Below are positions 2,224 to 61,741 of a DNA stretch of 64,000 nucleotides, one piece after another. The DNA is from an uncultured Chloroflexia bacterium. Its GTDB lineage: Bacteria; Chloroflexota; Limnocylindria; Limnocylindrales; CSP1-4. How positions within the stretch are numbered: the stretch's first letter is position 1; every line of letters begins with the position of its first letter. Under the pieces are notes generated by a model. That model did not search any database, was not told where the DNA came from, and saw only the letters and a program-made list of their open reading frames with translations. Location of the stretch: positions 791,962 through 855,961 of the forward strand of contig CAVZTK010000006.1 in assembly GCA_963778155.1 (NCBI GenBank), read 5' to 3'. The translations under genes and the position numbers were made by a program.

Positions 2224-4105
2224 TCAGCGCAGGAAGCGCCGGCGGACCTCGCCCAGGCTGTCGAAGACGAGCAGGACTCCGAGCGCGAGCAGCCCGGCCA
2301 GGAACAGCTCGCGCAGGTACTCGATGGCCAGGATGAGCGTCGAGATAAGCGCCAGCACGATGGTGATCCGCAGCACCAGCTCCATGATGTTGCGGTCGAA
2401 GAACGATTCGATCACGAGATAGGAGCCGAGCAGCACGACGATCGCGGTCGGCGGAGGCAGGATCCGGAACCAGACGATGACCGCCAGAACGGCGATGAGC
2501 AACCCGACGCTGACCGCGGCCCACGCTTCGCCGAAGGCCCGGCGGCGGGCGACCGCCGGCGGCTCGGGCTCCGAGGCGTGATGGAGGTGGAGCCTCGGAT
2601 CGTCGAGCTGCCCGGCCCGCAGCGCAGCGAGGCGGTCGTGACCGGCGGCGATGGCGGTACCCAACTCGACCGCCTCGGCGCGGATCGCGCCCAGCCGCTC
2701 CTCGCCGGTCCGCAGCTCCTCGGCGCGTTCGGTCCGGTAGCCGGTCAACCCTGCCGTCTGGCGCACCGCGCCAAGCTCGGCATCGAGCTCAGGAAGAGAG
2801 ACGGCAAGGGTGTCCGCCTCGGCCACCAGTGCGGCCCGGGCCGCCGTCAGCTCGGCCAGCCGTGTCTCGAGGACCGCAACCGCTCGTGATGGCGGTGCGA
2901 CCTTCGCGAGGCCCGCGAACCCCAGTGGGTCGTACCACGACTGCCGGACGGAGCCGGTGCGGGTGTACTTCGGGTCCGGCCGGCGCACGTTCGCCTGCGA
3001 ACCGGTCGCCGGTGTCGAGCCCCCACAGCCCGCGGTATCGATCGACCCAGCCGACGTCGTCCCCGATGAGGACCGGCGACCAGGCGACGTCGGCGCCGGG
3101 GCCGACGGTGAGGCCGTCGCCCCGGGCGTAGTCGACGAACGGGACGCTCAGCGCCCGCTTCGCGTTGGCGGCAAGGTCGCCCGGGTCAGGCTGGGCCAGC
3201 GTGTCGCGCCAGAAGTGCCGTACGAGATCGAGCACGCCACGGATCCGTTTCTCGCCGGGAAACGGCAGCAGCATGATGTACTCGCCACGCTCGAGGTAGG
3301 TCGCATGCGAGCCGGCGCCCGGGTAAACGATCGGGTGCCCGTCGATCGTCTCCATCCGTGGATCGTCCCACCGCCGCCGCAGGTCATCGCCCTTCTCGTC
3401 GTGGGCCGCGGCGCAGAACCACGCGGGGCGCAGACTGCCGTCCTCAAGCGTCTCGCACACGACGAAGCACTGCTCAAGATCGGCCTCGTGATCGTTGGCA
3501 CCCTCGAACGTCGAACGCCAGTCGTTCATCGCGTAGAAGAACATGTAGTGCAGCACGACCCACGAGCCCACGCGGACGACCCGGCCGTGGTAGACGACCC
3601 GCGGGTCCTTCTCGCGGATCCGGTCGTACTTCTCCGAGGCGGCCGCGGCCGTGCCGCCCGGAACCCGGCCGCGCAGCAGCAGAGAGGTGACAAGGCCGGC
3701 ATCGACGAGCCGGGCCGCCAGGCCGACCCGGGCGAGCCGGCCGGGTGCCGAGAACCGCTGGTGCTCGGGGCGGGATTGCCAGCGCCGGAGCTCGAGCGCG
3801 TTGAGCGGATGCGGGACGAAGCGGAGGAACTGCGCCTCGCCCGGGGCCGGGTCGCCAACAGCGGCGAGCCGTTCGAGATCGAGCTCGCCGGCTGGGATGG
3901 CCACGCGCGTCTCGCGCAGCGTCGGGCCGGTCAGCAGGTCGCATTCCTCGACATATGGTCCGGTCCCCATCGGGAAGAACAGCTCGCCGTCGGTGAAGCG
4001 CAGGATCGGCTCGTGCCGCGCGAGTAGCTCGAGGTCGGCCGCCGACGCGGCGTCGGTTGCATCGTTGATGCCGGTGGCATCGGGCGCGCCTGCCGTGGCG
4101 GTCAC
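2224..4105 (-). pseudogene. Large hypothetical protein: possible Vps62/DUF946-like N-domain, coiled coil and C-terminal TM helices; one frame break
   Basis: ORFs 2789..4105 and 2224..2988 join as ...DRFAGERAPAGP|KYTRTGSVRQSWYDPLGF once one C is removed from the CCC (plus-strand GGG at 2972-2974). The core reads VVLHYMFFYAMNDW...NDHEADLEQCFVV...HPIVYPGAGSHATY. An Ala/Glu/Leu-rich coiled coil and hydrophobic helices (VSVGLLIAVLAVIVWF, IVLALISTLILAIEYL) follow. The GTG start overlaps the upstream stop (GTGA). Confidence 0.65.
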
Positions 4106-4538
4106 GGTATGGCCTCGCCATGGAGCGCCATCCGGAGGTCACGCTGGTTCAGGTAGAAGACCGCGATGACGTTGAGCAGCATCGAGAGGTAGCGCGGCTT
4201 CGCCGCTCCACCACCAGCCGAGGTCGATGGCGAGGATCACGCCCGACGAGATGATTGCCAGGACCCAGGCCCACTCCTTCCACGCCAGCAGGCCCACGAT
4301 GGTCGCCAGGCTCGCGATGAGGATGCCGATCAGCACGGCGGTCACCACGACAGCGGCCGTCGTCCCCTCCGGGCTATCGGGCAACGGCGACGGTGTCGCG
4401 CAACCACTGGACAACGTCGCCGCCCTCGAACTTCGCGAGCGCGGCGATGATCGACAAGGCGCGGATGGCGCTGAGCACCACGATCACGAGGATCCCGAGC
4501 GGGTACCGCGATCGGACCGAGCGGGCGCCCTGGGTCAT
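4102..4538 (-). pseudogene. Small multi-pass membrane protein (hypothetical), two frame breaks
   Basis: ATG at 4538 gives MTQGARSVRSRYPLGILVIVVLSAIRALSIIAALAKF. The next frame (track ORF 4139..4414) gives TAAVVVTAVLIGILIASLATIVGLLAWKEWAWVLAIISSGVILAIDLGWWW. The third frame gives KPRYLSMLLNVIAVFYLNQRDLRMALHGEAIP, ending in a TGA that overlaps the next gene's GTG. Breaks lie at the GGG at 4379-4381 and near 4200-4206. Confidence 0.5.
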
Positions 4539-4588
4539 GTCCACAGGCTAGCAGGCGGCCACGGCGCCGACCTCGCCCCCCGACGCGC

Positions 4589-5566
4589 TCACCGGGGCAC
4601 GAGCACGGTGACCGCGCCCGGCACCACCTCGACCTCGAGGGTGCCGGCCCGGTGGTGGTCACCGTCGGTCTCGATCGGCTGCTCCGGATCGGCTTCGATC
4701 GTGACCCGGCTGATGGAGCGGCGGATGACGCCGCCCTGGAGCTCGCCGGTCCCGAGCAGCAGCCGGGCAGCGCCCTGCAGGGCGGCGAGTGGGTCCGTCC
4801 CACCGAGGACGATGAGCTCGAGCCGGCCGCTCGACGGATCGATCGGCTGTCGCGGCCCGATCCGCCCGGGGACCAGCTGCCCGGCGTTGGCGACCATCGC
4901 CAGGTAGCCGTCGATCTCCATCGCGTCGCCATCGGCGTCGATCCGGAACCGCGACGGCACGAGCCGCCCCATCTCGCGGATCGCCGCTCCCACATAGGCA
5001 CCGAAGCGGAGCCGGCGCTTCCACTCGGTCTCGGCGGCCGCCATGATCCGCGCGTCGAGCCCCATCCCGCAGGCGACGATGAAGATCCGCTCGGCGGCTT
5101 TGGAGGCCGCGTCCGAGGCCGAGTCCGTGCCGCCGGCCCCGGCCGCCGGCCCCCAGCGGGCACGACCGAGGTCGAGCCGACGCGGCGGGCCGGATCGGAT
5201 GGCGTCGAGCGCCGGGCCGATGCCGCGGATGCCGAGGCTTCCCGCCAGGACGTTCCCCGTCCCGGCCGGGACGATCGCCAGGGGCGCCGAGCCGTGCGCC
5301 ATGGTTTCCGCCGCTTCGCGGACACTGCCGTCACCGCCGATGGCGACGATCAGCGGAGCATCCCCGCCGGCGGCCACGTTCGCCAGTGTCGCGCGCATCG
5401 TCGCCAGCGAGCCGGCCTCGATCACTGGGACGCGACCCGTCCGACCGCGGACGGCAGCCGAGACGGCCGAGACGATCCGGTCGCGCCGGGCCGGATCGAT
5501 CATCCCCGAGGCTCTCGGATTGACCAGGATGAGTGGGTCGCCGGAGGCGATCGGGGTGGGGGTCAC
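4589..5566 (-). CDS. Diacylglycerol kinase catalytic-domain family lipid kinase (YegS/BmrU type)
   Basis: Intact 325-aa ORF with LILVNPRASG, the VAIGGDGSV nucleotide-binding motif and IVPAGTGNVLA. Confidence 0.9.
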   Translation of the reverse strand: MTPTPIASGDPLILVNPRASGMIDPARRDRIVSAVSAAVRGRTGRVPVIEAGSLATMRATLANVAAGGDAPLIVAIGGDGSVREAAETMAHGSAPLAIVPAGTGNVLAGSLGIRGIGPALDAIRSGPPRRLDLGRARWGPAAGAGGTDSASDAASKAAERIFIVACGMGLDARIMAAAETEWKRRLRFGAYVGAAIREMGRLVPSRFRIDADGDAMEIDGYLAMVANAGQLVPGRIGPRQPIDPSSGRLELIVLGGTDPLAALQGAARLLLGTGELQGGVIRRSISRVTIEADPEQPIETDGDHHRAGTLEVEVVPGAVTVLVPR

Positions 5567-6440: not shown

Positions 6441-7927
6441 TCACCCGTCGCGACGGGCGACCTTGTCGAGATAGGCGAGGATGGCGTCTGCCGAACGGTC
6501 GATGTCGGCCGGCGTCGTCTGCCAGCCGGACACGGAGATGCGCATCGCCGCCTGACCGGCCCACGTGGTCCCGCCAAGCCAGCACGTTCCGTCACGCTGG
6601 ACGGCGTCGATGACGGCCCTGGTCCTGGAGTCGCCGCGGGAGCCGTCCGCGTCCTCACCCGGTCCGTCGAAACGGACGAGGACCTGGTTGAGCACGACCT
6701 CGTTGAGGATCCTGACGCCGGGTCCCGCGGCGAGCCGATCGGCCATCTGACGGGCCAGCGCGCAGTCGCGCTCGACCAGGTCGATGAGACCCTGGCGCCC
6801 CAACGACCGGAGGGCGGCGAGGACCGTGAAGCCACGCGCTCGGCGGGACGATTCCGGGACCCAGTTGTAGGGATCGCGCTCGGCGCCCTCGGTCTCGACG
6901 TAATAGGCGGCGCCGAGCGTCATCGCCTGGCGATGCGCGGCAGCGTCGCGAACGAAGACGAGACCGGAGTCGTACGGCACGTTGAGCCACTTGTGGGCGT
7001 CGGTCGACCACGAATCCGCGGTCGTCGTGGCCGCGCATGAGGTGGCGCAGCGAGGGGACAGCGGCAGCCCAGATCCCGAACGCCCCGTCGACATGGACCC
7101 AGGCGCCGCGCTCGTGGGCGATCGACACGATCTCGTCGAGCGGATCGAATGCACCGGTGTTCACGTTCCCGGCCTGGGCACAGACGATGACCGGCCCGTC
7201 GATCCCCGCCAGCTCGGCGCGCAGGGCATCGGGGCGCATCCGGCCCTGCTCGTCGGACGCGATCCGCCGGACGCGGTCGCCCTCGCGGCCGAGACCGAGC
7301 ATGCCCAGCGAGGCGGCGATCGTGACGTGGCTGCCCGCGTGCGTGATGACGGTGACCAGCGGCGCGCCCTGCAGACCAAGGCGATCGACGTCCCAGCCGG
7401 CCCGCGCGAGGACCGCCTGGCGGGCTGCCGCGATGGCCGTGAAGTTGGCCATCGTCGCGCCGGTCAGGAACCCGACGCTCGTCCCGGCGGGCAGGCCGAG
7501 CAGGTCGACCAGCCAGCCGGCCGCCACCTCCTCCGCGACCGCGGCGGCCGGCGACGAGACGAACAGCGACGGCGTTCTGGTCCCACGTGCTCGCCAGCCA
7601 GTCGGCGGCCAGGGCGGCCGGCAAGCCCGCCGCCGATGACGAACCCGAAGTAGCGCGGACCGGCGCTCGCGACGAGCCCGGGATCGACCGCGGCGGCCAG
7701 GTCCTCGATGACCGTCGAGCGGATCGGTCGGCTCGTCCGGGAAGCGGTCCGCCGAGCGCCGCACGAAGCGCAGCCAGGTCCGCCGGACGACCGACCGGAC
7801 GCGTCGCGAGCGAGGCGCGATAGGCGATGGCGATCTCGGCCGTGCGGTCGAGCAAGCCGCGGTTCGTCGGGTCATGTCGGGCCTCCCCGACGTGGCGGGC
7901 GGCCGGGAGCGCGACCGCGATGAGCAC
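6441..7927 (-). pseudogene. Group-II PLP-dependent amino-acid decarboxylase, about five frame breaks
   Basis: Pieces are spread over three frames: RTAEIAIAYRASL; DEPTDP; STVIEDLAAAVDPGLVASAGPRYFGFVIGGG; LPAALAADWLASTWDQNA; SLFVSSPAAAVAEEVAAGWLVDLLGLPAG...VHVDGAFGIWAAA; DSWSTDAHKWLNVPYDSGLVFV (PLP-Lys motif). Breaks lie near 7739-7741, about 7700, 7626-7628, about 7570 and 7019-7022. Confidence 0.8.
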
Positions 7928-19503: not shown

Positions 19504-22042
<2,539 letters not shown>

Positions 22043-22250
22043 CGGTGGTCAGGCTCCTGGTGCGCAGGCGATCACGGTCGATCGACCGGCCGCGCGTGAC
22101 GCGTCCCTCGAGGAGGGTCGCAGGAGTCGGCTTCCGCAGTCGTTAGTAGGCGGATGCTACCACGTTGCGGGATGGTGTCGAAATGGTTGCCGTGCGGGAT
22201 CGGAACCCCGTCACCGGCGGCCGCCCAATGGCAGGTCCGGCCCGGACTCG

Positions 22251-22280
22251 TTGACAGGTCAACCCCGCCGCCCGTAGCAT
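22251..22280 (+). promoter_or_regulatory. Candidate sigma-70-type promoter for the riboswitch-led operon
   Basis: TTGACA (22251-22256), an 18-nt spacer, then TAGCAT (22275-22280), about 15 nt before the riboswitch P1 helix. Confidence 0.4.
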
Positions 22281-22295
22281 CCGCACACAACCGAA

Positions 22296-22404
22296 GAGCT
22301 CTTATCAAGAGTGGCAGAGGGACCGGCCCGTTGAAGCCACGACAACCTACCGACGAATCGGCAAGGTGCCAAGCCCGGGCAGGTCATCCTGCACGATAAG
22401 GGAA
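22296..22404 (+). promoter_or_regulatory. SAM-I (S-box) riboswitch
   Basis: GAGCTCTTATCAAGAGTGGCAGAGGGACCGGCCCGTTGAAGCCACGACAACC...GGCAAGGTGCCAAGCCCGGGCAGG...CCTGCACGATAAGGG carries the conserved S-box blocks: the P1 pair CTTATC/GATAAG, GAGGGA, GGCCC, TGAAGCC, CAACC and GGTGCCAA. It ends 88 nt before the ThrC-like start. Confidence 0.85.
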
Positions 22405-22491
22405 CCTCCCTTCGGAGCCCCCCTATCCGACCAGACGGTCGCCCGTACCCGGTCCCGAGGCGCACTTTCCCCAGGCCTCCCGGAGACGACC

Positions 22492-23791
22492 ATGGCGATC
22501 GAGATCCTTCCGTCAGCCACCCACGCCGACCGCATCGTCGGGCTCCGCTGTCGCAATTGCGGCGCGAGCCAGCCGATCGGCATGTCGTATGTCTGTCCGG
22601 CCTGTTTCGGTCCGCTCGACGTCGCCTATGACTACGCCGTCATCGGGGCGACCCTGACCCGCGAGGCGATCGCGTCGCGCGCACCGGGGATCTGGCGCTA
22701 CGCCGAGCTCCTGCCGGTGGACAAGCCGCCGACGCGCGGGCTGCCGGTCGGGTCGACGCCGCTGCTCGCGGCCGATCGTCTGGCGCCGGTCCTCGGGCTC
22801 GATCGGCTGTGGCTGAAGGACGACACGCGGAACCCGTCGCTGTCGTTCAAGGACCGCGCCGTGGCCGTCGCCGCAGCGCGTGCGGTCGAGTTCGGGGTCG
22901 AGGCGCTGGCCTGCGCATCGACCGGGAACCTGGCGGGCGCAACAGCTGCCGCTGCGGCCGCGCTGGGGCTGCCGGCCTACGTGTTCATCCCGGCCGACCT
23001 CGAGCCGGCCAAGGTCGATCACGCGCTGGCCTACGGCGCGACAGTGGTCCCCATCGAGGGCACGTACGACGACGTCAACCGGTTGTGCCTCGAGGTCGCG
23101 GACGAGACGGGCTGGGGCTTCGTCAACATCAACCTGCGGCCGTTCTACGCCGAGGGCTCCAAGACCCTCGCCTACGAGATCGCCGAGTCGCTCGGCTGGC
23201 GGTCGCCCGATGTCGTCGTCGCGCCGGTGGCATCCGGTGCGATGTTCACCCACGTCGCGCGCGGGTTCGAGGAGCTCGTCGAGCTCGGATTGATCGCGAG
23301 CCGGCCGATCCGGTTCGTCGGCGGCCAGGCCGCCGGCTGCGCACCGATCGCGACCGCGTGGGCGACCGGCAGCGACGTCATCGTCCCGGTCCGCGAACCC
23401 GACACGATCGTGCGCTCGCTCGCCATCGGAAGCCCGGCCGACGGCCGCGATTCGGCGGCCCTGGCGAACGCGTCGGGCGGCTCGATCGAGGCGATCGAGG
23501 ACGCCGTGACGGCGGCTTCGATCCGCGACGTGGCTCGGCTCGAAGGGATCTACCCGGAGACGGCTGGTGGCGTGACTCTCGCAGCGGCCGCCGCCGCCCG
23601 ACGTCGCGGCGTCATCCGGCCCGGCGACGAGGTCGTGGCACTCCTCACCGGGAACGGGCTCAAGACACCCGACGCGCGGACGCTGGGCGGGGGCGACGGT
23701 GTCGCGCGGCCGGGTCAGCCCGGTCTCGCGCCCGTCGATCCGCCCGAGCCTTGCCGCATTCGAGCGCTGGCTGGACGGCGGCGCGTCGTGA
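22492..23791 (+). pseudogene. Threonine-synthase-like PLP enzyme with N-terminal zinc ribbon (MetM-like, predicted homocysteine-forming), one frame break near the C-terminus
   Basis: GGAG SD and ATG at 22492. CRNCG...CPACFG zinc ribbon. PLP lysine in NPSLSFKDRAV. ASTGNLAGA and LLTGNGLKTPDA are also present. Removing one C from the CCC at 23731-23733 gives ...GLAPSIRPSLAAFERWLDGGAS, whose TGA overlaps the next GTG (GTGA). Confidence 0.85.
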
Positions 23792-24061
23792 GCACGGTCC
23801 GCATCCCGCCGACCCTGCGTGTGGCCACCGGCGGCGCCAAGCAGGTCCAGGTCCCGGGCGGGACCGTTCGGGAGGTCGTCACCGGCCTCGTCGCGCTGCA
23901 TCCCGGACTCGAGGCCCAGCTCATCGCGCCCGATGGCGACCTCAACCGGTTCGTCAACGCGTTCCTCAACGACACGGACGTGCGCCACCTCGAGGACCTC
24001 GATACGCCCGTCGGGCGACGGCGACACCCTGGTCCTGCTCCCGGCGATGGCCGGCGGCTGA
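23788..24061 (+). pseudogene. MoaD/ThiS-type ubiquitin-like sulfur-carrier protein (MetO-like), one frame break
   Basis: VSTVRIPPTLRVATGGAKQVQVPGGTVREVVTGLVALHPGLEAQL...FLNDTDVRHLEDLDTPVG. Removing one G from the GGG at 24013-24015 continues the protein as DGDTLVLLPAMAGG-stop, the diagnostic C-terminal Gly-Gly. Confidence 0.8.
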
Positions 24062-24094: not shown

Positions 24095-25269
24095 TCAGGC
24101 TTCGTCGAGGGCGCGTGCGAGGTCCGCGATGAGGTCGCCCGGGTCCTCGATGCCGACCGACAGGCGGACGAGCGCCGCCGACACCTCGAGCGGCGACCCG
24201 GCCACGGACATGTGGGTCATCGCCGCCGGCAGCTCGATGAGCGACTCGACCCCACCCAGCGACTCGGCCAGGGTGAACAGCCGCGTCCCCTCGGCGACGG
24301 CGACCGCCCGCTCCGCGGCGCTGCGGCCGTGCCGTCCGCCATCGGTCGGCAGGAACGACACCATCCCGCCCATCGCCCGGGTAGTGGACCTCGGCCACGT
24401 CCGGCCGGCCGTCGAGGAAGTCGGACACCATCACGGCGTTCGCGCCGTGCCGTTCCATCCGCAGGTGGAGCGTGCGCAGCCCGCGCAGGACGAGGAAGCA
24501 GTCGAGCGGTCCCGGCACGGCGCCCATCGCGTTCTGCAGGAACCGCAGCCGCTCGGCGATCGCCGGATCCGAGGTGACGGCCACGCCCAGGACGGTGTCG
24601 GAGTGGCCGGCGAGGTACTTCGTCGCGGAGTGGAAGACGATGTCGGCCCCCTCGCGCAGTGGCCGCTGGAGAGCGGGAGAAGCGAACGTGTTGTCGACGA
24701 CGACCAGCGGACGGCGGCCGCCTTCCTCGGCGCGGCGGGCGACGGTGGCCACGGTCGCCCCGATGTCGACGACCTTGAGATGCGGGTTCGACGGTGTCTC
24801 GAACCAGACGAGCCGGGTCCGCTCTGTGAGCGCCTCCCAGAGCGCGTCCTGGCCGCCGGCGAGATCGATGTAGCGGGCGTCGACGCCGGCGCCCCGCCGG
24901 ACCCGTTCGAGGTAGCGATACGTGCCGCCGTACACATCGTCGCCGACCACGATCTCGTCACCCGGCGCCGCCAGCTCGGCGATGGCCGCCGTGACCGCCG
25001 ACCCCGACGCGAACGCGATCCCGTGCTCCGCCGCCTTCGAGCGCAGCGACGGCCCGTTCGAGCCGTTCGCGGGTCGGGTTCTGCGAGCGAGCGTATTCGT
25101 ACCCGCGTCGCGGCCGACCGACGCCGTCCTGGGCGAACGTCGAGGTCTGGTAGATCGGTGGCGAGACCGCGCCGGTCAGCTCGTCCGGCTCGGCGCCTGC
25201 GTGGACGGCCAGCGTGTCGAAGGCGTACGGCTCGGTGACGTCGGGGCGCGGGTCGGGCATCAAGGCCAT
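24095..25269 (-). pseudogene. Cystathionine gamma-lyase/gamma-synthase family (Cys/Met-metabolism PLP enzyme), frame-disrupted
   Basis: The N-terminus reads FDTLAVHAGAEPDELTGAVSPPIYQTSTF...NPTRERLE. The middle reads EHGIAFASGSAVTAAI...DDVYGGTYRYL...VVDNTFASP...HSATKYLAGHSD (PLP Lys). The C-terminus reads GGMVSF...[19 protein letters not shown]...VRLSVGIED. Breaks lie near 25027-25036 and 24361-24385. At the second junction the usual roughly 17 residues between YPG and GGMVSF appear to be missing. Confidence 0.85.
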
Positions 25270-25282
25270 GGTAGCGGGCCGG

Positions 25283-25846
25283 TCAGGCGGCGGGCGGCCA
25301 CCCATCGAGATGGAAGACGAGCTCCTCGCCGTCGATGTCGTCGATCTGGACGCCGACCTGCTCGAAGCCGAGACCGCGGACGATCGCCAGCGAGCCGACG
25401 TTGTCGGGCGAGACCGACGCTCGGAAGCGGTCGACGCCCTGCGCGTGCGCCCAATCGAACAGCGCGCGGACGACCTCGGTCGCGACACCTTGGCGGCGGT
25501 ACTCGGGCTGGACCTTGTAGCCGACCTCGACGCGACCATCGGCGTCGGGCGGAGCATGGAACCCGCACGAGCCGATCGCCCGTCGCGTGCCGTCGTCTTC
25601 GGTCAGAACGATCGCCCGGCCGAGCCACGGCTGAGCGGCCGGGTCCTCGGTCAGGTCCGCGATGCGGTACTGGAGGAAGTTGTCGAGGTCGTCCGGAAAG
25701 CTCTCCGGGACCGTGGCTCCGAGCTCGGCCTCCGCGGCGACCAGGTGGCGGGCGACCAGGTGGCGCATGAACGGCAGCGACATCGACTCGAGCTCGAAGC
25801 GTCGCGTCCGGATGGGCGGCACGGACATGTCCTCAGCCTCGGCCAT
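25283..25846 (-). CDS. GNAT family N-acetyltransferase
   Basis: Intact 187 aa. Acetyl-CoA-binding motif EYRRQGVATEVVRALFDWA and C-terminal NVGSLAIVRGLGFEQVG. The start may instead be the internal Met at 25828. Confidence 0.85.
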   Translation of the reverse strand: MAEAEDMSVPPIRTRRFELESMSLPFMRHLVARHLVAAEAELGATVPESFPDDLDNFLQYRIADLTEDPAAQPWLGRAIVLTEDDGTRRAIGSCGFHAPPDADGRVEVGYKVQPEYRRQGVATEVVRALFDWAHAQGVDRFRASVSPDNVGSLAIVRGLGFEQVGVQIDDIDGEELVFHLDGWPPAA

Positions 25847-27269
25847 TCGGTCGATGGGTCAGGTACTCGAGGACATCGAGCTTGGTGACGACGCCCACCG
25901 GGCGCCCGGCACGCGTCGCGATGACCGCCGACGCCCCGCCGGCGGTCAACAGGCTGAACGCGTCGTCGAGGCTGTCGGCAAGGTCCACCAGGGGCAACGG
26001 CCGGTCCATCACCTCGCCGACGGTCCGGTCCACCGTCGACGGGTCGCGGAAGGCACGGTCGAGCAGGCCCTTCTCCGTGATCGAGCCGACGATGCCCTCG
26101 ACCGCGTCGCCCTCCGGTTGCTCGGACACCGGGAGCTGGCTGATCCCGAACTCCTGGAAGATCTCGATCGCCTCGCCGACCCGCTGGGTCGTCCGCGCCA
26201 GCACGAGGTCGGGTCGCGGTCCGGCGTGACGACGGTCGTCGAGCAGGTCGCCGACGCGAACGATGGCACCGGTCGTCGGGAGCAGCCCGTTGACCCGCAT
26301 CCACTCGTCGTTATAGACCTTGGACAGGTAGTTCCGGCCGCTGTCGGGCAGAAGGACGACCACCACCGCGGCTGCGCCGCGCTCGGACTGCGTCAGGTCC
26401 CGGACGACCTCGCGCGCCGCGACCATGGCCGTGCCGCACGAGCCACCCGACAGGATCCCCTCCTCACGCGTCAACCGCCGCGCCATGGCGAACGCGTCGC
26501 GGTCGCTGACCCGGATCCAGCGGTCCACGACGGCCGGGTCGTACGTGCCAGGCAGGAAATCCTCCCCGACGCCCTCGGTCAGGTACGGACGCGCGACGTC
26601 GCCCGACAGGACGCTCCCCTCGGGGTCCGCACCGATCACCTGGATCGTCGGGTCGTGGGCCTTCAACGCCCGGGCGGCGCCGCTGATCGTGCCGCCCGTC
26701 CCGACACTGGCCACGAAGTGGGTGACCCGCCCGTCGGTCTGCTCCAGGATCTCGGGACCGGTCGTGCGCTCGTGAGCGGCCGGGTTCTCCGGGTTCCAGT
26801 ACTGGTCGGGCTTGAACGCGCCCGGGATGTCGCGCGCGAGCCGTGCGGCGACCGAGTAGTAGCTCTCGGGCGATTCGGGGGTGACGTTGGTGGGACACAG
26901 GACGACCTCCGCGCCATACGCCCGCAGGAGCTGTTGCTTCTCCGCCGACTGCTTGTCGGCCATCACGAAGATGCAGCGGTAGCCCTTGAGCGCCGCAGCG
27001 ATCGCGAGACCGTGTCCGGTGTTGCCCGATGTCGGCTCGATGATGGTGCCGCCCGGACGCAGGAGCCCGGCCCGTTCGGCAGCCTCGATCATCGGCAGGC
27101 CGATCCGATCCTTGACGGAGCCGCCCGGATTGAGCATCTCGAGCTTGGCCAGTAGCAGCGGCTGGCGGTCGGCTGGGCCGAGGTCGCGAGTCAACCTGCT
27201 GATCCGAACGAGCGGCGTGCCGCCGACCAGGTCGAGGATCGACTCCGCGTACTGCATCGGCCGGAGCAT
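25833..27269 (-). CDS. Cystathionine beta-synthase (PLP domain plus tandem CBS domains)
   Basis: Intact 478 aa. LNPGGSVKDRIG (PLP Lys), EPTSGNTGHGLA and SVGTGGTISG are followed by two CBS-pair-like segments (VGDLL...ISQLPV, VGEVM...VVTKLDVL). Confidence 0.9.
   Translation of the reverse strand: MLRPMQYAESILDLVGGTPLVRISRLTRDLGPADRQPLLLAKLEMLNPGGSVKDRIGLPMIEAAERAGLLRPGGTIIEPTSGNTGHGLAIAAALKGYRCIFVMADKQSAEKQQLLRAYGAEVVLCPTNVTPESPESYYSVAARLARDIPGAFKPDQYWNPENPAAHERTTGPEILEQTDGRVTHFVASVGTGGTISGAARALKAHDPTIQVIGADPEGSVLSGDVARPYLTEGVGEDFLPGTYDPAVVDRWIRVSDRDAFAMARRLTREEGILSGGSCGTAMVAAREVVRDLTQSERGAAAVVVVLLPDSGRNYLSKVYNDEWMRVNGLLPTTGAIVRVGDLLDDRRHAGPRPDLVLARTTQRVGEAIEIFQEFGISQLPVSEQPEGDAVEGIVGSITEKGLLDRAFRDPSTVDRTVGEVMDRPLPLVDLADSLDDAFSLLTAGGASAVIATRAGRPVGVVTKLDVLEYLTHRPNGRG

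Positions 27270-36250: not shown

Positions 36251-36254
<4 letters not shown>
34878..36254 (-). CDS. sufD: Fe-S cluster assembly protein SufD
   Basis: The ATG at 36254 overlaps the sufB stop (ATGA). The C-terminus reads GRDTTGNLLSKGALLDRARSFMKGMIVI...AHASSVGPIDETQLFYLESRGIPPDEARKFIVMGF. The 946-aa track ORF is a chimera that extends out of frame over sufB. Confidence 0.9.
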
Positions 36255-37654
<1,400 letters not shown>

Positions 37655-37719
37655 CTGGTCTCCGGTCGTTCGTGCGGCGCCCGGCGCCGCGGCTGGCCCG
37701 TTCGTCGGGCTCGGTCATC

Positions 37720-38281: not shown

Positions 38282-38393
38282 CGCGCTGGCACACTCGAGG
38301 CGAGCGTGCCCGAAACTCGGGCGCGGCTTCTAGCCGAGCCCGAGCACAGCCGAGATCATGTCGCGAGACAAGTCGAGTCAGAAGGAGCTTGAA

Positions 38394-38606
38394 ATGCCGC
38401 TCAGGAAAGCAGTCGTCGCCGCCGCGGTCGTCAAGCCGGGACCGTCGCCCGTCGCCAAGGCCGCAGTCGTCGGCGCCGCCGTCAAGCCGGGTCCGTCGCC
38501 CGTCGCCAAGGCCGCCGTCGTCGGCGCCGCGGTCAAGCCGGGTCCGTCGCCCGTCGCCAAGGCGGCCGTCGTCGGCGCAGTCGTCAGGCCGGGTCGCCGC
38601 CGCTAG
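38394..38606 (+). CDS. Small repeat protein (70 aa) built from 17-aa VKPGPSPVAKAAVVGAA units
   Basis: AAGGAG lies 7 nt before the ATG at 38394. Four of the five differences between the repeat copies fall at third codon positions of this frame, which supports plus-strand coding. Confidence 0.6.
   Translation: MPLRKAVVAAAVVKPGPSPVAKAAVVGAAVKPGPSPVAKAAVVGAAVKPGPSPVAKAAVVGAVVRPGRRR
38430..38582 (+). repeat. Three tandem 51-bp repeats, followed by a degenerate partial copy
   Basis: GTCAAGCCGGG(A/T)CCGTCGCCCGTCGCCAAGGC(C/G)GC(A/C)GTCGTCGGCGC... is repeated at 38430, 38481 and 38532. Confidence 0.9.
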
Positions 38607-48585: not shown

Positions 48586-50178
48586 TCATGAGGACGGGAT
48601 GACGCCCACGTTGAACCACCGGTCGTCGCCGAGGACCTGGCGCATGACGAACATCGAGGCGAACGGCGCGTCCTGGCGCGACTGGAGCGCACCGCTCGCG
48701 TCGTAGGTCTCCTCGGTCCTGGTGCCCGTCGCCTGGAACGCCATGCCCAGACCCGTCTGCGACTTCAGCAGCTTGACCGTGAGGAAGAGGCTGTCGAAGT
48801 GGTAGCGCTCGATCGTCGTCCGGCCGGTCGTCCTGGCCTGGTCGAGGTCGGTCTGCAGCTCCTTGAGCCGATCGCCGTGGTCGATCGCGGGCAGGAGGCT
48901 CGCATCGCCGTGCAGGAGCGCTTCGTTCTCGGCGGCCAGGTTGCGCGCGAGGGTGAGCGCCAGCGCAGGCGCCTGCTCGCGAACGCGGTCGGCGTTCCAT
49001 GACGTGACCGACGGGTCGATCGAGACGGCCGGGATCGAGGCCGCCTCGACCCGGAGTGACGGGTCGAGGTAGACGACGCCCTCCGTCGCGCCGGCGATGG
49101 TCCGCGCGGGCGATCCGGCGAGGACGATCCCGGCACCGAACGCGATGAGCACCCCGACGGTGAGGCCGCCCAGAGCCACCTTCCGGAGCGGACTCCCTCC
49201 GGTCGCCCCGATCCCCGCGAGGTGACGCGCGTACGGGACCAGCCGGTCGAGCTCGGAGCGAGGGGCCGGCAGGAACCGGTCGAAGACCGGTCGGAGCGCG
49301 CACATCGCCACGAGGCTCGCGAGGAGGCCGACCTTGGCCCCGAATTCAGTCGTCTGGGGGGCGATGAACAACGTGCTCGTGATCCCGACCGAGGCCGCGA
49401 ACAGGATCCGCCCGACGTTCCCGGCCGGGATGGTCTTGGGGTCCGTGAGCATGAAGAACAGGAAGATCAGCACCTCCGGGGAGGTCAGGATCGTCCGCCA
49501 GAAATCGGCCCCGCAGACCGGCCCGAACGCCCAGTCCGTGGTCATGCAGTGACCGGAAGCGGCCAGGCCGCCGATCCCGATCGCGAGGGTCAGCCAGTAG
49601 GTCGCAGCCATCGCGAGGAGGTGAAGCCGGCGGGTGATGAGCGTCCCGCCGACGATGATGATCGCGTAGGCGAGGACCAGCCAGCCATCGAGCGGACCCC
49701 ACCAGAAATCGAGCGGCTGCACCCGCTCGACGCCGAGCAGCAGGAACGCGGCGACCAGGCCGAGGTTCGACGGGTTGAACACATGCGAGCCGCGGTACTG
49801 GATGACGTACTTGGTGAGCAGCGCTGCCCCGGCGACGATGGCGAAGATGTACAAGTCGTTGGTGCCCCACGGGTCGCCGACCTTCGTGTCGGTCGTTCGG
49901 AGGATCAGGGCCACGCCGCTGCCGGTCAGCATCGCGCTCGCCGGCCACACCAACGCCCCCTTCGAGCGCAGGGTGAGCGCGACCTCGATGACCGCGCAGG
50001 TCAGGATGGCGGCCAGGATCTGCGGGATCGTGACCCGGAACTGGAGCCCGAGCTGCCCCAGGATGTGGATCGAGATGATGCAGGCTGCGACGTGGAGGCG
50101 CGGGTCCCGGATGCTCGGCAGGACGACCGGATACCGCCGCGCGCCGAGCGTGAGCGCCCGGCTCGTCGCAGCGGTCAA
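48586..50178 (-). CDS. RnfD/NqrB-like polytopic membrane protein with large C-terminal non-membrane domain (orphan)
   Basis: Intact 530 aa. The TTG start overlaps the upstream stop (TTGA). HVFNPSNLGLV and LIFLFFMLTDPKTIP resemble the NqrB/RnfD family. The last roughly 210 aa are hydrophilic. Confidence 0.65.
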   Translation of the reverse strand: MTAATSRALTLGARRYPVVLPSIRDPRLHVAACIISIHILGQLGLQFRVTIPQILAAILTCAVIEVALTLRSKGALVWPASAMLTGSGVALILRTTDTKVGDPWGTNDLYIFAIVAGAALLTKYVIQYRGSHVFNPSNLGLVAAFLLLGVERVQPLDFWWGPLDGWLVLAYAIIIVGGTLITRRLHLLAMAATYWLTLAIGIGGLAASGHCMTTDWAFGPVCGADFWRTILTSPEVLIFLFFMLTDPKTIPAGNVGRILFAASVGITSTLFIAPQTTEFGAKVGLLASLVAMCALRPVFDRFLPAPRSELDRLVPYARHLAGIGATGGSPLRKVALGGLTVGVLIAFGAGIVLAGSPARTIAGATEGVVYLDPSLRVEAASIPAVSIDPSVTSWNADRVREQAPALALTLARNLAAENEALLHGDASLLPAIDHGDRLKELQTDLDQARTTGRTTIERYHFDSLFLTVKLLKSQTGLGMAFQATGTRTEETYDASGALQSRQDAPFASMFVMRQVLGDDRWFNVGVIPSS

Positions 50179-50792
50179 CGCGGAACGGAGGTGACCGCGG
50201 GGGAGCTGTAGCCGAAGTCGGCGATCTCGGCCGCTCGCGGGCGGTAGGCCTCGGCACTCGGCGCGGTCCTGGCCCGGAAGCCATCGACCATCCGGTTGTA
50301 CATCGAGAATGCCGCGGCGATCAGGACCGCGAGCTGGACGTCGGCGTCGGTCGCACCCGCGTCGAGGGCCGTGTCCACGTCGCCTCGGGTCAGGTCACGA
50401 GGCTCTCGCCGGACGGTCCGCGAGATATGCAGCAAGGCCTGCATCTTCGGATCGAAGCCCTCCGACGATCCGATCTTGATCTGGTCGATCAGTGCCAGTC
50501 GATCCTGCTCGCCGGTCTTCTCGAGCAGGGCACTCGCGAATGCCCCGTGGGAGTCCATGCAGTAAAAGCAGTCGTTGGCGGCCGACACCGCGGTCGCGAG
50601 CATCTCGCGCTCCGCCCGGACGAGCGTGGTCCCGGGGAAGTCGTTGACCAGGAGCTCGTCGGCCAGGCCGCGGAGGTGGACCCCGAGGCCGGGTGTCAGC
50701 CGGATCGCGGCAAGGATGCCCGGAACGTCCGGCAGGCTGCCGACGATCGGATCCTCCTGTGAGCGCGAGAGTCGTTCGTCGTCGCGAGCCAT
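50175..50792 (-). CDS. Carboxymuconolactone decarboxylase / AhpD-like peroxidase-related protein
   Basis: ATG at 50792 after a GAAGGGGG SD. VSAANDCFYCMDSHG carries the CxxC motif typical of AhpD-like proteins. Confidence 0.8.
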   Translation of the reverse strand: MARDDERLSRSQEDPIVGSLPDVPGILAAIRLTPGLGVHLRGLADELLVNDFPGTTLVRAEREMLATAVSAANDCFYCMDSHGAFASALLEKTGEQDRLALIDQIKIGSSEGFDPKMQALLHISRTVRREPRDLTRGDVDTALDAGATDADVQLAVLIAAAFSMYNRMVDGFRARTAPSAEAYRPRAAEIADFGYSSPAVTSVPR

Positions 50793-50889
50793 GGAGCCCC
50801 CTTCAAGGTGTCCGGTGAGTCGGTCGAGGAAGGATGATACGGAGGCCGGCCGGTTCACGCACGTGGCGCCGCTCCGTTGGCCCGCGATG

Positions 50890-51549
50890 CTACGCGGTCG
50901 CGACGCCTCCCGGTACGGCACGGGACGGCGACGGCAACGACGCTGCGCCGAGGAGGAGCTCGACGATCGCCGATGCCCGGCGCTCGAGATCGGCCGGCCG
51001 GTAGGCGTCGCCGGCCTCGATCCGCTGGAGCAGGAGTCCGTCCAGGAGCGCCAGGAAGCCCCTGGTCACCGCGTCGACATCGAGCCACGCGGGCAGCTCA
51101 CCGCTGATCACGCCCTGGCGCAGGAGGAGCTGGCCGGCGCCGGCCAGGCGTTCCCGCCGACCGGCCAGCATCTCGCGGACGCCGGGCTCGCGGTCAGCCT
51201 CGGCCCAGGCCTGGACGAGCGAGACCTGGCCCGGGTCGCCGTCGTAGTCGTCGATGGTTTCGACATAGAGACGGATGGCGATGGCCAGCCGCTCGGCGGT
51301 GGTGGTCGCGTGCGCGAGCCGGCCGGCCAGCTCGTCGAGACCCCGGGCCGCGATCCCATCACAGGCGAGCCGGATCAGCTCGTCCTTGCCGCTGAAGTAG
51401 GTGTAGATGGCGCCCACCGACAGTCCGCTCTCGCGGACGACGTCGGCGATGGTCGAGCTGTGATAGCCCTTCTCGGCGAAGACCCGCGCGGCAGCGGCGA
51501 GGATCCGATCGCGAACCTCCTGCTCATGGGCGGCACTGACACGCGGCAC
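50890..51549 (-). CDS. TetR/AcrR family transcriptional regulator
   Basis: Intact 219 aa. The N-terminal helix-turn-helix reads RDRILAAAARVFAEKGYHSSTIADVVRESGLSVGAIYTYFSGKDEL. Confidence 0.9.
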   Translation of the reverse strand: MPRVSAAHEQEVRDRILAAAARVFAEKGYHSSTIADVVRESGLSVGAIYTYFSGKDELIRLACDGIAARGLDELAGRLAHATTTAERLAIAIRLYVETIDDYDGDPGQVSLVQAWAEADREPGVREMLAGRRERLAGAGQLLLRQGVISGELPAWLDVDAVTRGFLALLDGLLLQRIEAGDAYRPADLERRASAIVELLLGAASLPSPSRAVPGGVATA

Positions 51550-51620
51550 GTCGACTCCTAAAACGAATGCTCCTTCTTCGCAATGTATCCCACTCTCGTG
51601 CTGTTCGCAACCGTCCTAGC

Positions 51621-59006: not shown

Positions 59007-60164
59007 TCAGACGCGACCCTTCGGCACGGTGTGCCAGTACGTCTTGTTGAAGACGATCTTGCCCAGGTGCCACAGGTGGTTCGGCTTTGGCGGGCGTGGC
59101 GGGTGGTCGTAGTCGAACTGGAGGAGAGTCCCCTTCCCGTCGCCGATCTCGAAGAAGCACATCACCCGGCCGTGGTAGTCGACATGCTTGCCGGCCGGGG
59201 CGCGACCCTCGACCGCGGCCGCGATCCGCTCGGCCACGACCGGAGCCTCGAAGTGCGCGGTCGAGCCCGCCTTCGAGAGAGGCAGGTCCGTCGCGTCGCC
59301 GAGCGCGTAGATGTCGTCGTATCCGGCGACGCGAAGCGTCCGTCGGTCGGTCGGGAGCCAGCCGCCGGGCGCCGGAGCGAGACCGGAGTCCATCAGGAAC
59401 TGCTGCCCCTTGTGCGGCGGCACCAGGATGAGGAGGTCGTAGCCGAGCTCCTCGCCTTCGAGGCTGAGGACGACCTTCCGCTCCGGGTCGATGGCCTCGA
59501 CGTTGAAGAAGGTGTGGAGCTCGATGTGCTTTGCCTCGAGGATCGGGGTGGCCATCTCGGACACGCTCTCGATCATGAATGCGCGGCCGATCGGCGAGCA
59601 GAAGTCGATCGAGGTGCGGCCGCGCATGTCGCGGTCGCGGAGCTCAGCCTCGAGCAGGAACGCGACCTCGAGCGGGGCCGGCGGGCACTTGTAGGGCATC
59701 CCCGCGATGCCGATGAGGATCCGACCGCCGTCGAACCGGTCGAGCGCGGCGCGCAGCCGGCCGGCCGCTTCGGCGGAGTAGAAGTGGTGGGCTTCGGCGT
59801 CGAAGTGCTCGATCAATTCGGGCACGATCCGCGACCCCGTCGCCAGCACCAGCTGGTCGTAGCCAAGGGGCAGCCCATCCGTGAGCGTGACGACCCGAGC
59901 CGTGGTGTCGACCCGCTCGACCTCGCCGACGATCAGGGTGACCCGCTTGTCGAGCAGCCCGCGCTCCGGACGATGCAGGTTGGCCGCCCGTTCGTGGCCC
60001 ATGGCGATGTACATGAAGCCCGGCTGGTAGGTGTGCTCGCCGCTGGCATCGACGACGATGATCCCGACCTCGCCACGGTCGATCCGACGGCGCAGCTTCT
60101 TGACGAGGAGGTTGGCGGTGAGGGTGCCTCCGACACCGCCGCCGAGGATGAGGATCCGTTGCAT
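59007..60164 (-). CDS. Sulfide:quinone-oxidoreductase-like FAD-dependent oxidoreductase
   Basis: Intact 385 aa. FAD motif ILILGGGVGGT. GMPYKCPPAPLE is the Cys-containing motif also seen in SQR-type enzymes. YALGDATDLPLSKAGSTAHFEA is the second FAD-proximal block; here it carries Ala where, as I recall, many SQRs carry Cys. Confidence 0.75.
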   Translation of the reverse strand: MQRILILGGGVGGTLTANLLVKKLRRRIDRGEVGIIVVDASGEHTYQPGFMYIAMGHERAANLHRPERGLLDKRVTLIVGEVERVDTTARVVTLTDGLPLGYDQLVLATGSRIVPELIEHFDAEAHHFYSAEAAGRLRAALDRFDGGRILIGIAGMPYKCPPAPLEVAFLLEAELRDRDMRGRTSIDFCSPIGRAFMIESVSEMATPILEAKHIELHTFFNVEAIDPERKVVLSLEGEELGYDLLILVPPHKGQQFLMDSGLAPAPGGWLPTDRRTLRVAGYDDIYALGDATDLPLSKAGSTAHFEAPVVAERIAAAVEGRAPAGKHVDYHGRVMCFFEIGDGKGTLLQFDYDHPPRPPKPNHLWHLGKIVFNKTYWHTVPKGRV

Positions 60165-60170
60165 GGCCGG

Positions 60171-60416
60171 CTACCGTCGCTTCTCGACGACGATCTCGTC
60201 GTAGCCGTCGCGCGCGTCGAGGGCGACGAGTCGGTGGCCCGCCTTCTCGACCCATTTCGGGATGTCGGTCCTGGAGCCCCGGTCCGAGGAATAGACAGCG
60301 ATGATGTCCCCGACCCGGCCTTCGCGAATGGCGCGGATGAGCTCCATCAAGGGGCCCGGGCAGAAGCTGCCTCGGGCGTCGACGACGCGGGTGATGGCGA
60401 TGGCGGTATCGGTCAT
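60171..60416 (-). CDS. TusA/SirA-family sulfurtransferase (copy 2)
   Basis: ATG at 60416, 81 aa. VDARGSFCPGPLMEL carries the CPxP active-site motif. Confidence 0.85.
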   Translation of the reverse strand: MTDTAIAITRVVDARGSFCPGPLMELIRAIREGRVGDIIAVYSSDRGSRTDIPKWVEKAGHRLVALDARDGYDEIVVEKRR

Positions 60417-60451
60417 GGCGGTCACGCCCTTCCTGGGGTCGGCTGTTTCGT

Positions 60452-61060
60452 CTAGATGAACAGCGGGACCGAGTTCGTCGTCATGAGCTCGATGACGGTC
60501 GCGGCTCCCACCGGCTCGCCCATGCCCTCGATCATGTCCTCGGGCTTGAGGCCGAACATGTCCATCGTCATCTGGCACGGCATGAACTCGACGCCCATCG
60601 CCTGGGCGATCTCGAGCAGCTCCTTGGGGCTGGACACGCCGTACTGCTTGGCGAGCTTGCGCATCATCCAGGGACCCATGCCGAAGAAGTCCATCTTCGA
60701 GAGGTGCCGGTGACTGATGCCCGGACGTTGCATCGTCGACATCATCTTCTGCATCCAGTTCTCGCCGGTGATCCGCTTCGAATCCCTGACGAAGACCGGG
60801 AGACCCCAGAACGTCACGAAGACCCGAGTCTTGACACCCATCGCGGCGCTCGTCGAGGCGAGGATCATCGTGGCCCAGACCTTCTCGAGGTCGCCGCTGT
60901 AGTCGATGATGAGGAAGTCCTTCGTCGCGACTGCCCCGTCATCCGCCGGAGCCGGGACGGGTTCGGGGGTGGCGGTCGGGTCGCTCGCGTCGGGCCAGCC
61001 TTCGACGGCAGCGATCGCCTCGGCAAGTGGATCGAGGGTAGGCACTGTGCCGGTGGTCAT
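60452..61060 (-). CDS. DsrE/DsrF/DrsH-like family protein with 45-aa Pro/Ala-rich N-extension (copy 2)
   Basis: Intact 202 aa. FLIIDYSGDLEKVWATMILASTSAAMGVKTRVFVTFWG and the conserved Cys in VEFMPCQMTMDMFG. Confidence 0.75.
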   Translation of the reverse strand: MTTGTVPTLDPLAEAIAAVEGWPDASDPTATPEPVPAPADDGAVATKDFLIIDYSGDLEKVWATMILASTSAAMGVKTRVFVTFWGLPVFVRDSKRITGENWMQKMMSTMQRPGISHRHLSKMDFFGMGPWMMRKLAKQYGVSSPKELLEIAQAMGVEFMPCQMTMDMFGLKPEDMIEGMGEPVGAATVIELMTTNSVPLFI

Positions 61061-61067
61061 GGCGGCC

Positions 61068-61304
61068 TCACTTCCTGCGGATGACGAAGCGGTACATCGC
61101 GCCGTCGGAGGTCTGCTCGATCAGCTCGTTGCCGGTCACGCGACACCACGCCGCAACGTCCTTGATCGAACCCACATCCGTCGCCACGAGCTCGACGACG
61201 GCTCCGGACGGAAGGGCTTTGCACGCCTGGGCGGTCTTCACGATGGGCATCGGACACGACAATCCGCGCGCATCGACGGTCTGGCTGATCTCGACGACCG
61301 GCAT
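61068..61304 (-). CDS. TusA/SirA-family sulfurtransferase (copy 1)
   Basis: AAAGGAG SD and ATG at 61304, 78 aa. VDARGLSCPMPIVKT carries the CPxP motif. Confidence 0.85.
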   Translation of the reverse strand: MPVVEISQTVDARGLSCPMPIVKTAQACKALPSGAVVELVATDVGSIKDVAAWCRVTGNELIEQTSDGAMYRFVIRRK

Positions 61305-61327
61305 GGTCGGGCTCCTTTCGTTCCTGG

Positions 61328-61741
61328 TCAGATGAAGACGACCTGCCCCTCGCCGGCGTTGAGGTAGAACGCAGTCACGCCCTCCACCCCATCGACCAAC
61401 GGGTCGAGATCGCTCGATTCGAGATGGAGAAGGTCCATCGACAGCGAGCACGCCTGGATGTCGACCGACCCGAGATCCTTCGCCTGACGCATGGTCTCGG
61501 ACCATGGCGCCTGACCGGCGCGAGCGAGCGCGGCGACCGCTGCCTTGCCCTCGGGACCGGCCTCCGGTGCGAGCCCGTGGTCGAGGGCGATGCGGTCTGC
61601 CCTGAACGCATCGAGCGCCCAGTACTGCAGGAAGATGTTGACGGGCTTGCCGAGCGCGGCAGCGCCGGCGGCGAGGACCGCGGCGGCCTGGAGCTTGTCG
61701 TCGGTGCCGGAGAAGAGGACGAGGTTCAGCGGTTCGTCCAT
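61328..61741 (-). CDS. DsrE/DsrF/DrsH-like family protein (copy 1)
   Basis: ATG at 61741, 137 aa. LNLVLFSGTDDKLQAAAVLAAGAAALGKPVNIFLQYWAL and the conserved Cys in DIQACSLSMDLL. Confidence 0.75.
   Translation of the reverse strand: MDEPLNLVLFSGTDDKLQAAAVLAAGAAALGKPVNIFLQYWALDAFRADRIALDHGLAPEAGPEGKAAVAALARAGQAPWSETMRQAKDLGSVDIQACSLSMDLLHLESSDLDPLVDGVEGVTAFYLNAGEGQVVFI

Follow-up and report, generated by a model that had tools for sequence, protein, structure and literature searches.

In the present study, we analysed a 64,000-nucleotide (nt) stretch of DNA from an uncultured member of the Chloroflexota (Limnocylindria), which is referred to as the window. All coordinates are positions within the window, and L001 to L083 denote the related loci that were compared with it. 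On its forward strand, the window carries a promoter-like site, a SAM-I (S-box) riboswitch aptamer for S-adenosylmethionine (SAM), a gene for a pyridoxal phosphate (PLP) enzyme of the threonine synthase (ThrC) family and a gene for a small carrier protein of the ThiS/MoaD fold (Table 1). The two genes are called metM-like and metO-like here, after MetM and MetO of Streptomyces albulus. S. albulus MetM has been described as a ThrC homologue that converts O-phosphohomoserine to homocysteine with thiocarboxylated MetO (Hasebe et al. 2024, Appl Environ Microbiol 90:e01247-24, as reported in citing papers). The original prediction for this DNA had pointed to a ThrC-homologue/MoaD-homologue pair of these names in Streptomyces, and the citing papers do describe such a pair (GapMind 2026; PMC12172450; a 2026 preprint). 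Our analysis indicated that the locus is probably a two-gene operon of the MetM/MetO type, which would serve a thiocarboxylate route to homocysteine and would be switched off by SAM.

The leader and the two genes

A search of the whole window against Rfam gave a single match, to the SAM-I family RF00162. The match scored 74.7 bits against a gathering score of 44.4 (E 1e-15) and covered model positions 1-108 of 108. The original prediction had placed an S-box element at 22296-22404; the covariance model recovered the element and moved its boundaries to those in Table 1. The window sequence accommodates all four helices of the SAM-I four-way junction, with P1 formed by 22299-22306 and 22395-22402 and with P2, P3 and P4 inside. 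The consensus fold of six homologous leaders contained 32 pairs, 9 of them with compensatory changes. The aptamer is placed in the 5' leader of the operon, on the same strand, 89 nt before the ATG of the metM-like gene and 3' of the promoter-like site.

Table 1. Features of the operon and of the genes convergent with it (window positions)
Feature	Position	Strand	Details
Promoter-like site	22251-22280	+	TTGACA 22251-22256, 18-nt spacer, TAGCAT 22275-22280
SAM-I (S-box) aptamer	22299-22402	+	RF00162 covariance-model match
Leader / expression platform, 89 nt	22403-22491	+	hairpin 22405-22416, CCCUAUC 22421-22427, GGAG 22482-22485
metM-like gene, ThrC-family PLP enzyme	22492-23791	+	PALP; 432 aa without the inserted G near 23737
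metO-like gene, ThiS/MoaD-fold carrier	23788-24061	+	Pfam ThiS; 90 aa without one G at 24013-24015
Cystathionine gamma-lyase/synthase-family gene (Cys_Met_Meta_PP)	24098-25269	-	Pfam; convergent with the operon
GNAT acetyltransferase gene	25283-25846	-	Acetyltransf_3, 66 bits; between the gamma-lyase and beta-synthase genes
Cystathionine beta-synthase-like gene	25833-27269	-	PALP 255 bits, CBS 49 bits

The putative sigma-70-like promoter matched the consensus at 10 of 12 positions and ended 19 nt before the aptamer. Both hexamers are kept at an equal distance from the aptamer in L001, L003 and L005, and nearly so in L002, in line with the TTGACA-N18-TAGCAT promoter of the original prediction. 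Within the 2.4-kb region, two promoter-like sites were found against 0.1 expected from shuffled sequences. A second putative promoter, TCGACA-N16-TAGCAT with a TG extension, lies at 22154-22181 on the reverse strand and faces the gene for ATP-dependent phosphoenolpyruvate carboxykinase (20462-22042, -), so that two divergent promoters seem to share the 450-bp intergenic region.

The leader between the aptamer and the metM-like gene contains a conserved CUCC-CUUC-GGAG hairpin, and its Shine-Dalgarno sequence, GGAG, lies 6 nt ahead of the AUG. When the 5' strand of P1 was blocked in the folding, the 3' strand of P1, GAUAAGGG (22395-22402), paired with CCCUAUC around this small hairpin. The resulting element, GGG and CCC flanking the hairpin, is invariant in four close relatives and showed no covariation in the consensus fold. 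In both folding states, the Shine-Dalgarno sequence and the AUG were predicted to be paired.

In the raw sequence, frame 1 stays open from 22492 across the whole carrier gene and first meets a stop at 24132. Alignment with L001, L002 and L003 revealed one G inserted after GTC at about 23737 in the metM-like gene and an insertion that turns GG into GGG at 24013-24015 in the metO-like gene; both insertions are absent from all three relatives. With both removed, the first gene encodes a 432-amino-acid (aa) enzyme ending in ...AFERWLDGGAS with a TGA at 23789-23791, and the second encodes a 90-aa carrier ending in ...LLPAMAGG with a TGA at 24059-24061. The GTG start of the carrier at 23788 overlaps the enzyme stop, so that 4 nt are shared (GTGA, 23788-23791). 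The original prediction had given the GTGA overlap and the GG end after correcting one base. Both features held, and the single correction proved insufficient, the insertion near 23737 having been overlooked. Intact orthologues of the enzyme in the databases are 431-432 aa long, share 95% identity at 100% coverage and end in ...AFERWLDGGAA or ...AFERWLGGDA. The 90-aa carrier orthologues of L001-L003 end in ...TLVLLPAMAGG; these three orthologues support the correction at 24013-24015, through which alone the GG end of the window carrier is seen. In the alignment, L001 is 90.5% identical to the window at the DNA level. Beyond the two indels, the operon genes show no stops or further lesions in comparison with the intact orthologues. 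A natural enzyme-carrier fusion, which the read-through open reading frame (ORF) might imply, was rejected; what it would have as linker and tail is conserved sequence read out of frame.

The metM-like protein matched Pfam PALP with 227.9 bits, and solved ThrC structures matched it at E 5e-56. The PLP lysine, K120 in the motif SFKDR (22849-22851), is invariant in 20 diverse homologues. The N-terminus carries a zinc-ribbon-like motif, C20-x2-C23...C35-x2-C38 (codons 20-38, 22549-22605), and in the alignment of the same 20 homologues C23 is kept in at least 90% of the sequences, while C20, C35 and C38 do not vary. The ThrC-like PLP enzyme with a CxxC...CxxC module that the original prediction had described was therefore recovered. 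The zinc ribbon was considered as a marker of the MetM clade and was rejected as such; it is also present in a carrier-less Chlorohelix thrC. This gene (L083, 2962-4200), on a plasmid of Candidatus Chlorohelix allophototropha, is annotated as thrC, encodes a protein 34% identical to the window enzyme with an N-terminal CxxC...CxxC and has no carrier gene adjoining it.

In the neighbour-joining (NJ) tree of the catalytic core, which was built without the characterised S. albulus MetM, the window enzyme fell within a clade of carrier-linked and riboswitch-linked proteins, with 50-60% core identity to 16 homologues and 70-89% to L004 and L002, its nearest relatives among the Chloroflexota. The other clade consisted of six canonical or carrier-less ThrC proteins (two solved structures, two genomic neighbours and two products of carrier-less thrC genes) with 34-39% core identity to the window enzyme. 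The structures 2zsj (38.7%) and 1uim (38.8%) both lay in this opposite clade. Clustering with canonical threonine synthases, which had been named beforehand as the outcome that would speak against the prediction, was not seen in this tree. Based on these sequence comparisons, the window enzyme is assigned to the carrier-linked clade and not to the housekeeping ThrC proteins. Other identities were also considered. Cysteate synthase was rejected at 59 bits against a cut-off of 325, and CysM and SAMP1 were rejected with scores under their cut-offs. The sole cysteine-synthase model among the matches listed was PRK10717 (cysteine synthase A), with 35.7 bits against a cut-off of 387 (E 4.8e-9).

The MoaD/ThiS fold that had been predicted for the small protein was supported by a Pfam ThiS match of 44.6 bits. 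Its best solved relatives are 4n6e_B (E 4e-20) and Mycobacterium tuberculosis CysO, 3dwg_C (E 2e-17), and both end in AGG.

Conservation of the pair across related loci

The family alignment was scanned against one genome per GTDB species, and 80 loci were obtained. The closest are uncultured Chloroflexia metagenome-assembled genomes (MAGs) at 86% identity; a protein of Candidatus Limnocylindrales is 85% identical to the window enzyme. With these matches, the window, whose GC content is 70%, most likely derives from a Limnocylindria-like member of the Chloroflexota rather than from an actinomycete. In about 70 of the 80 loci, which span at least six phyla, the metM-like gene is immediately followed on its own strand by a MetO-like ORF. 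Almost all of these ORFs end exactly in GG, and eight have short extensions past it. Directly upstream, a SAM-I element was found in 35 of the 80 loci, as counted with a covariance model built from six orthologous leaders; Rfam confirmed 9 of the 13 loci tested. The riboswitch-bearing loci belong to Chloroflexota, Acidimicrobiia, Solirubrobacterales, Actinomycetes, Verrucomicrobiota and Kiritimatiellae. The same covariance-model search of the 80 loci found the element in none of those from cyanobacteria or Nitrospirota; the enzyme-carrier pair occurs without the riboswitch in these two groups and in an Aquificaceae MAG.

A cultured anchor among the actinomycetes, Nonomuraea gerenzanensis, was obtained by tblastn against a plasmid collection. 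It has the same architecture, with a SAM element of 68.7 bits, an enzyme 50% identical to that of the window and a carrier ending in ...IIPAVAGG. No Streptomyces match was returned by two protein searches (with the window enzyme and with an Actinomycetes homologue), by the GTDB genome scan or by tblastn against the plasmid collection.

Two Nitrospirota loci, L061 (187-4500) and L072 (6001-10140), carry the metM-like and metO-like genes, then a canonical thrC and then a gene of family TIGR02535 ('proposed homoserine kinase', HomK). The two canonical ThrC proteins score 320-328 bits on TIGR00260, the thrC model, and the MetO-like proteins have short extensions past GG (GGAFIM and GGSC). The HomK family makes O-phosphohomoserine (GapMind 2026), so these clusters apparently gather both consumers of this compound together with its producer. 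The presence of HomK and thrC beside the pair therefore ties the pair to O-phosphohomoserine, and the adjoining thrC indicates that MetM is a paralogue of ThrC and not its replacement.

Genes for candidate activating or hydrolytic partners are rare next to the pair. The related loci had 97 downstream neighbours on the same strand, of which 6 were ThiF and 3 were JAB genes; this corresponds to a ThiF gene after the pair in 6 of the 80 loci and a Prok-JAB gene in 3. In the Nitrospirota loci L052, L057 and L067, the order is metM-like, metO-like, ThiF and then Prok-JAB. In the M. tuberculosis CysM/CysO system, the JAMM hydrolase Mec+ frees the product amino acid from the carrier adduct. The JAB gene of L067 follows a carrier that already ends in GG. 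The original prediction had held that a carrier ending directly in GG needs no JAMM protease. This is correct for C-terminal maturation only, since JAB genes follow the pair in these three loci and Mec is a listed step of the MetM route: the thiocarboxylate pathway of S. albulus is given as carrier MetO, hydrolase Mec, ligase MoeZ and homocysteine synthase MetM (GapMind 2026).

Several variant arrangements were observed among the related loci. In L046 (7226-8290, +), directly after the MetM homologue, one reading frame joins a MetO-like ThiS domain (...IPAIAGG) to a complete ThiF-family E1 domain; either carrier and activator are genuinely fused and would have to be cleaved, or a stop was missed. 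In two Chloroflexi/Dehalococcoidia MAGs, L044 (about 6510-6750) and L047 (about 7275-7515), a stand-alone 80-aa NIL-domain protein (PF09383, 60-62 bits) occupies the usual place of MetO, and in L078 (3032-3472, Omnitrophota) a NIL domain is fused to the MetO-like carrier after its GG. NIL domains are found in MetN and in archaeal proteins of homocysteine synthesis, and these arrangements may represent variant sulfur delivery. Finally, a CysK/CysM-like PALP gene, whose product is 40-43% identical to the catalytic domain of the window's cystathionine beta-synthase-like protein, lies just upstream of the metM-like gene in L010, L052, L057 and L067 (about 4180-5130, +), in L046 (5029-5919) and in L047 (1102-1959). 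In those lineages, one carrier may serve both CysM-type and MetM-type enzymes.

Readings of the operon

In the reading that we favour, a MetM/MetO-type operon controlled by SAM, transcription would start a few bases past the -10 element at 22275-22280, and the leader would fold as a SAM-I aptamer. To our knowledge, all characterised SAM-I elements are OFF with SAM. Because these elements are OFF switches, high SAM should close P1 and lower the expression of both genes. The first gene product would be a ThrC-family PLP enzyme that takes O-phospho-L-homoserine, and the second gene would be translationally coupled to the first through the GTGA overlap. The C-terminal Gly-Gly of the carrier would be adenylated and made into a thiocarboxylate by a MoeZ-type E1/rhodanese encoded elsewhere. 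Its sulfur would then take the place of the C-gamma phosphate, and the product would be homocysteine, from which methionine and SAM are made. For the window system, we infer what the enzyme consumes and what it makes, which way SAM turns the switch and which enzyme activates the carrier.

The mode of control appears to differ between lineages. In relatives with lower GC content, a U-run lies 40-50 nt past the aptamer, and the leader of L005 folds a hairpin just before it; termination in these relatives rests on the U-run positions and this one fold. In many Acidimicrobiia, the aptamer ends 0-20 nt from the coding match, which suggests that it occludes the start site directly. In the window leader, control would be translational or Rho-dependent because no intrinsic terminator was found.

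Several points weigh against the favoured reading. The terminator scan found no hairpin followed by a U-run 3' of the aptamer, although the same simple scan also missed the hairpin of L005. Constrained folding and the four-leader consensus fold gave no convincing helix that would sequester the Shine-Dalgarno sequence. The raw sequence yields neither an enzyme stop nor a GG end for the carrier. On TIGR00260, the window enzyme scored 234.3 bits, over the cut-off of 167.1. The likeness to the S. albulus proteins is indirect, through Nonomuraea and cyanobacterial homologues. A Microcystis homologue with an adjoining MetO-like gene, 51.6% identical to MetM, acted as a threonine synthase/deaminase, and methionine was not raised (PMC12172450). 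Within the 64 kb, Pfam searches of all ORFs with high GC content at third codon positions (GC3), together with tblastn, found no ThiF/MoeZ E1, rhodanese, JAMM hydrolase, HomK or second ThrC. For the E1 and the rhodanese, this extends to the whole window what the original prediction had noted next to the pair. The missing adjoining partners are unremarkable because ThiF and JAB genes are so rare among the downstream neighbours of related loci.

It could be supposed that the enzyme is an ordinary threonine synthase, that the small gene is a MoaD/ThiS gene adjoining it by chance and that the riboswitch regulates them loosely. The TIGR00260 score and the in vitro activities of the Microcystis protein fit this supposition, and every source name of the close homologues in the searched databases reads 'threonine synthase'. 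This name, however, is a common misannotation, MetM being 'often misannotated' in this way (GapMind 2026). A chance adjacency also sits poorly with a pair that is kept in most of the 80 loci across phyla and is preceded by a SAM riboswitch in 35 of them. Moreover, canonical ThrC forms a separate clade, canonical thrC adjoins the pair in L061 and L072, and Pfam searches of the window ORFs found no moaE, moaA or thiG near the pair. We therefore consider an ordinary threonine synthase highly improbable. The original prediction had argued that SAM control points to methionine rather than threonine as the product. This is backed by the comparative data, and we read SAM control as a probable methionine role because of the conservation of the pair and of the riboswitch and because of the separate thrC and HomK genes in the two Nitrospirota loci. 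A related alternative is a thiocarboxylate-dependent pair from this family that uses a different substrate or makes a different product, for example cysteine from O-phosphoserine or another sulfur amino acid. The closest solved relatives of the carrier are of the CysO type, in Nitrospirota and in some further relatives a CysK/CysM-like PALP gene immediately precedes the pair, and cystathionine beta-synthase and gamma-lyase genes flank the pair in the window. Against this, the enzyme is ThrC-like, with NCBIfam cysteine-synthase matches of only about E 5e-9, far under their cut-offs, and a cysteate synthase score that also falls well short. The operon is controlled by SAM and not by a cysteine signal, the HomK and thrC genes beside the pair in L061 and L072 speak for O-phosphohomoserine, and the one characterised member makes homocysteine (GapMind 2026). 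A different product was accordingly judged improbable.

The remaining alternative is a decaying pseudo-operon, in which both insertions are real and the locus encodes neither a proper enzyme C-terminus nor a GG-ended carrier. The single frame that runs through the raw sequence would agree with this, as would the three relatives that lack either insertion. Yet the genes otherwise share 90% of their DNA sequence and 95% of their protein sequence with intact orthologues and have no other lesions, and one insertion lengthens a G homopolymer. The neighbouring gamma-lyase gene is itself split by two frameshifts: the intact L001 orthologue matched it by tblastn in three separate segments (frames -1, -2 and -3; 90-92% identity). 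These two lie within 1.2 kb, and four frameshifts in total fall within 2.8 kb, two of them in the operon. Many window genes look split, and overlapping same-strand pairs of high-GC3 ORFs are frequent (for example at 2224-4138 and 48586-51615), so that the window consensus seems to be indel-prone throughout. Frameshifts also break up the closest relatives, which are long contigs of soil MAGs, including the nearest one, L001 (a contig of 730 kb from an ENA metagenome assembly). This pattern fits sequencing error better than selective decay. Because the insertions are absent from three relatives and one extends a G run, because the next gene is broken twice and many high-GC3 ORF pairs overlap, and because the nearest relatives are also fragmented, the two insertions are most likely errors of an indel-prone consensus, and we give little credence to gene decay. 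The practical lesson of the locus is sequence quality, as half of the frameshifts in this short region hit the operon.

If the favoured reading of a MetM/MetO-type operon is correct, the thiocarboxylate homocysteine route reported from Streptomyces in 2024 occurs, together with a SAM riboswitch, in uncultured soil Chloroflexota; the pair itself was also seen in Acidimicrobiia, Solirubrobacterales, Verrucomicrobiota and Kiritimatiellae. Owing to the naming of these enzymes as 'threonine synthase', pathway reconstructions of abundant soil lineages would overlook a route to methionine and may count too many threonine synthases.

Sulfur-related neighbours and comparison with known systems

Downstream of the operon, the genes at 24098-27269 were interpreted from their domain content as a cluster of the reverse-transsulfuration type, convergent with the metM/metO-like operon. 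The gamma-lyase/GNAT/beta-synthase order is identical in L001, and a gamma-lyase-family gene near the pair was found only in the closest relatives, L001-L003. It is conceivable, although we regard it as rather doubtful, that the MetM/MetO pair is the main entry of reduced sulfur into amino acids here and that the adjoining beta-synthase and gamma-lyase make cysteine from homocysteine. If this were true, cysteine would derive from methionine-pathway sulfur in this Limnocylindria-like lineage, and not the reverse. A second point of this doubtful reading is that the SAM-I element, which has neither a terminator nor a clear helix over the Shine-Dalgarno sequence, may act through Rho. Two further loci of the window were recorded. 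At 59007-62005 (-), 35 kb from the operon, a Pyr_redox_2 flavoprotein gene, possibly sulfide:quinone-reductase-like, is followed by two DsrE/DsrF-like (DrsE_2) genes and forms a second sulfur-related cluster. At 38334-38606 (+), a small ORF with three tandem copies of a proline-rich unit (AAVVGAAVKPGPSPVAK...) lies beside a DUF1622 gene and SufB (36251-37714, -).

Compared with the SAM-I family RF00162, the window element is a full-length match with a four-helix junction in the leader of a putative methionine-pathway operon, in a lineage without an intrinsic terminator. Compared with canonical ThrC (TIGR00260; 2zsj, 1uim, 6cgq, 2d1f), the window enzyme shares the fold and the PLP lysine motif and presumably the substrate. 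Unlike canonical ThrC, it belongs to a separate clade and is associated with a sulfur carrier and SAM control; its extra N-terminal CxxC...CxxC module is not unique to that clade. The system also resembles the CysM/CysO/MoeZ/Mec+ system of M. tuberculosis (3dwg), in which a PLP enzyme with an O-phospho amino acid as its substrate receives sulfur from the thiocarboxylate of a ThiS-fold protein, and the window carrier shares with CysO both significant sequence similarity and the AGG end. The two systems differ in that the window enzyme belongs to the ThrC family and not to CysK/CysM, its presumed substrate is O-phosphohomoserine and not O-phosphoserine, and its operon carries a SAM riboswitch.

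The closest parallel is the MetM/MetO system of S. albulus. In both cases, a ThrC-type PLP enzyme is followed by a ThiS/MoaD-type carrier, MoeZ and Mec are not necessarily adjoining, and a SAM riboswitch lies upstream, as was also reported for S. albulus metM (PMC12172450). The window enzyme shares about 50% identity with homologues whose own identity to MetM is about 50%, and its identity to canonical ThrC is about 35%; for comparison, canonical Bacillus subtilis ThrC and MetM share 33% identity (2026 preprint). The window system differs from that of S. albulus in that its two genes share 4 nt, its carrier has GG at the very end, and convergent gamma-lyase and beta-synthase genes adjoin the pair. 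The host is an uncultured member of the Chloroflexota and not an actinomycete. The MetM/MetO kind was thus already described in Streptomyces in 2024, and the window holds a further member of it in another phylum.

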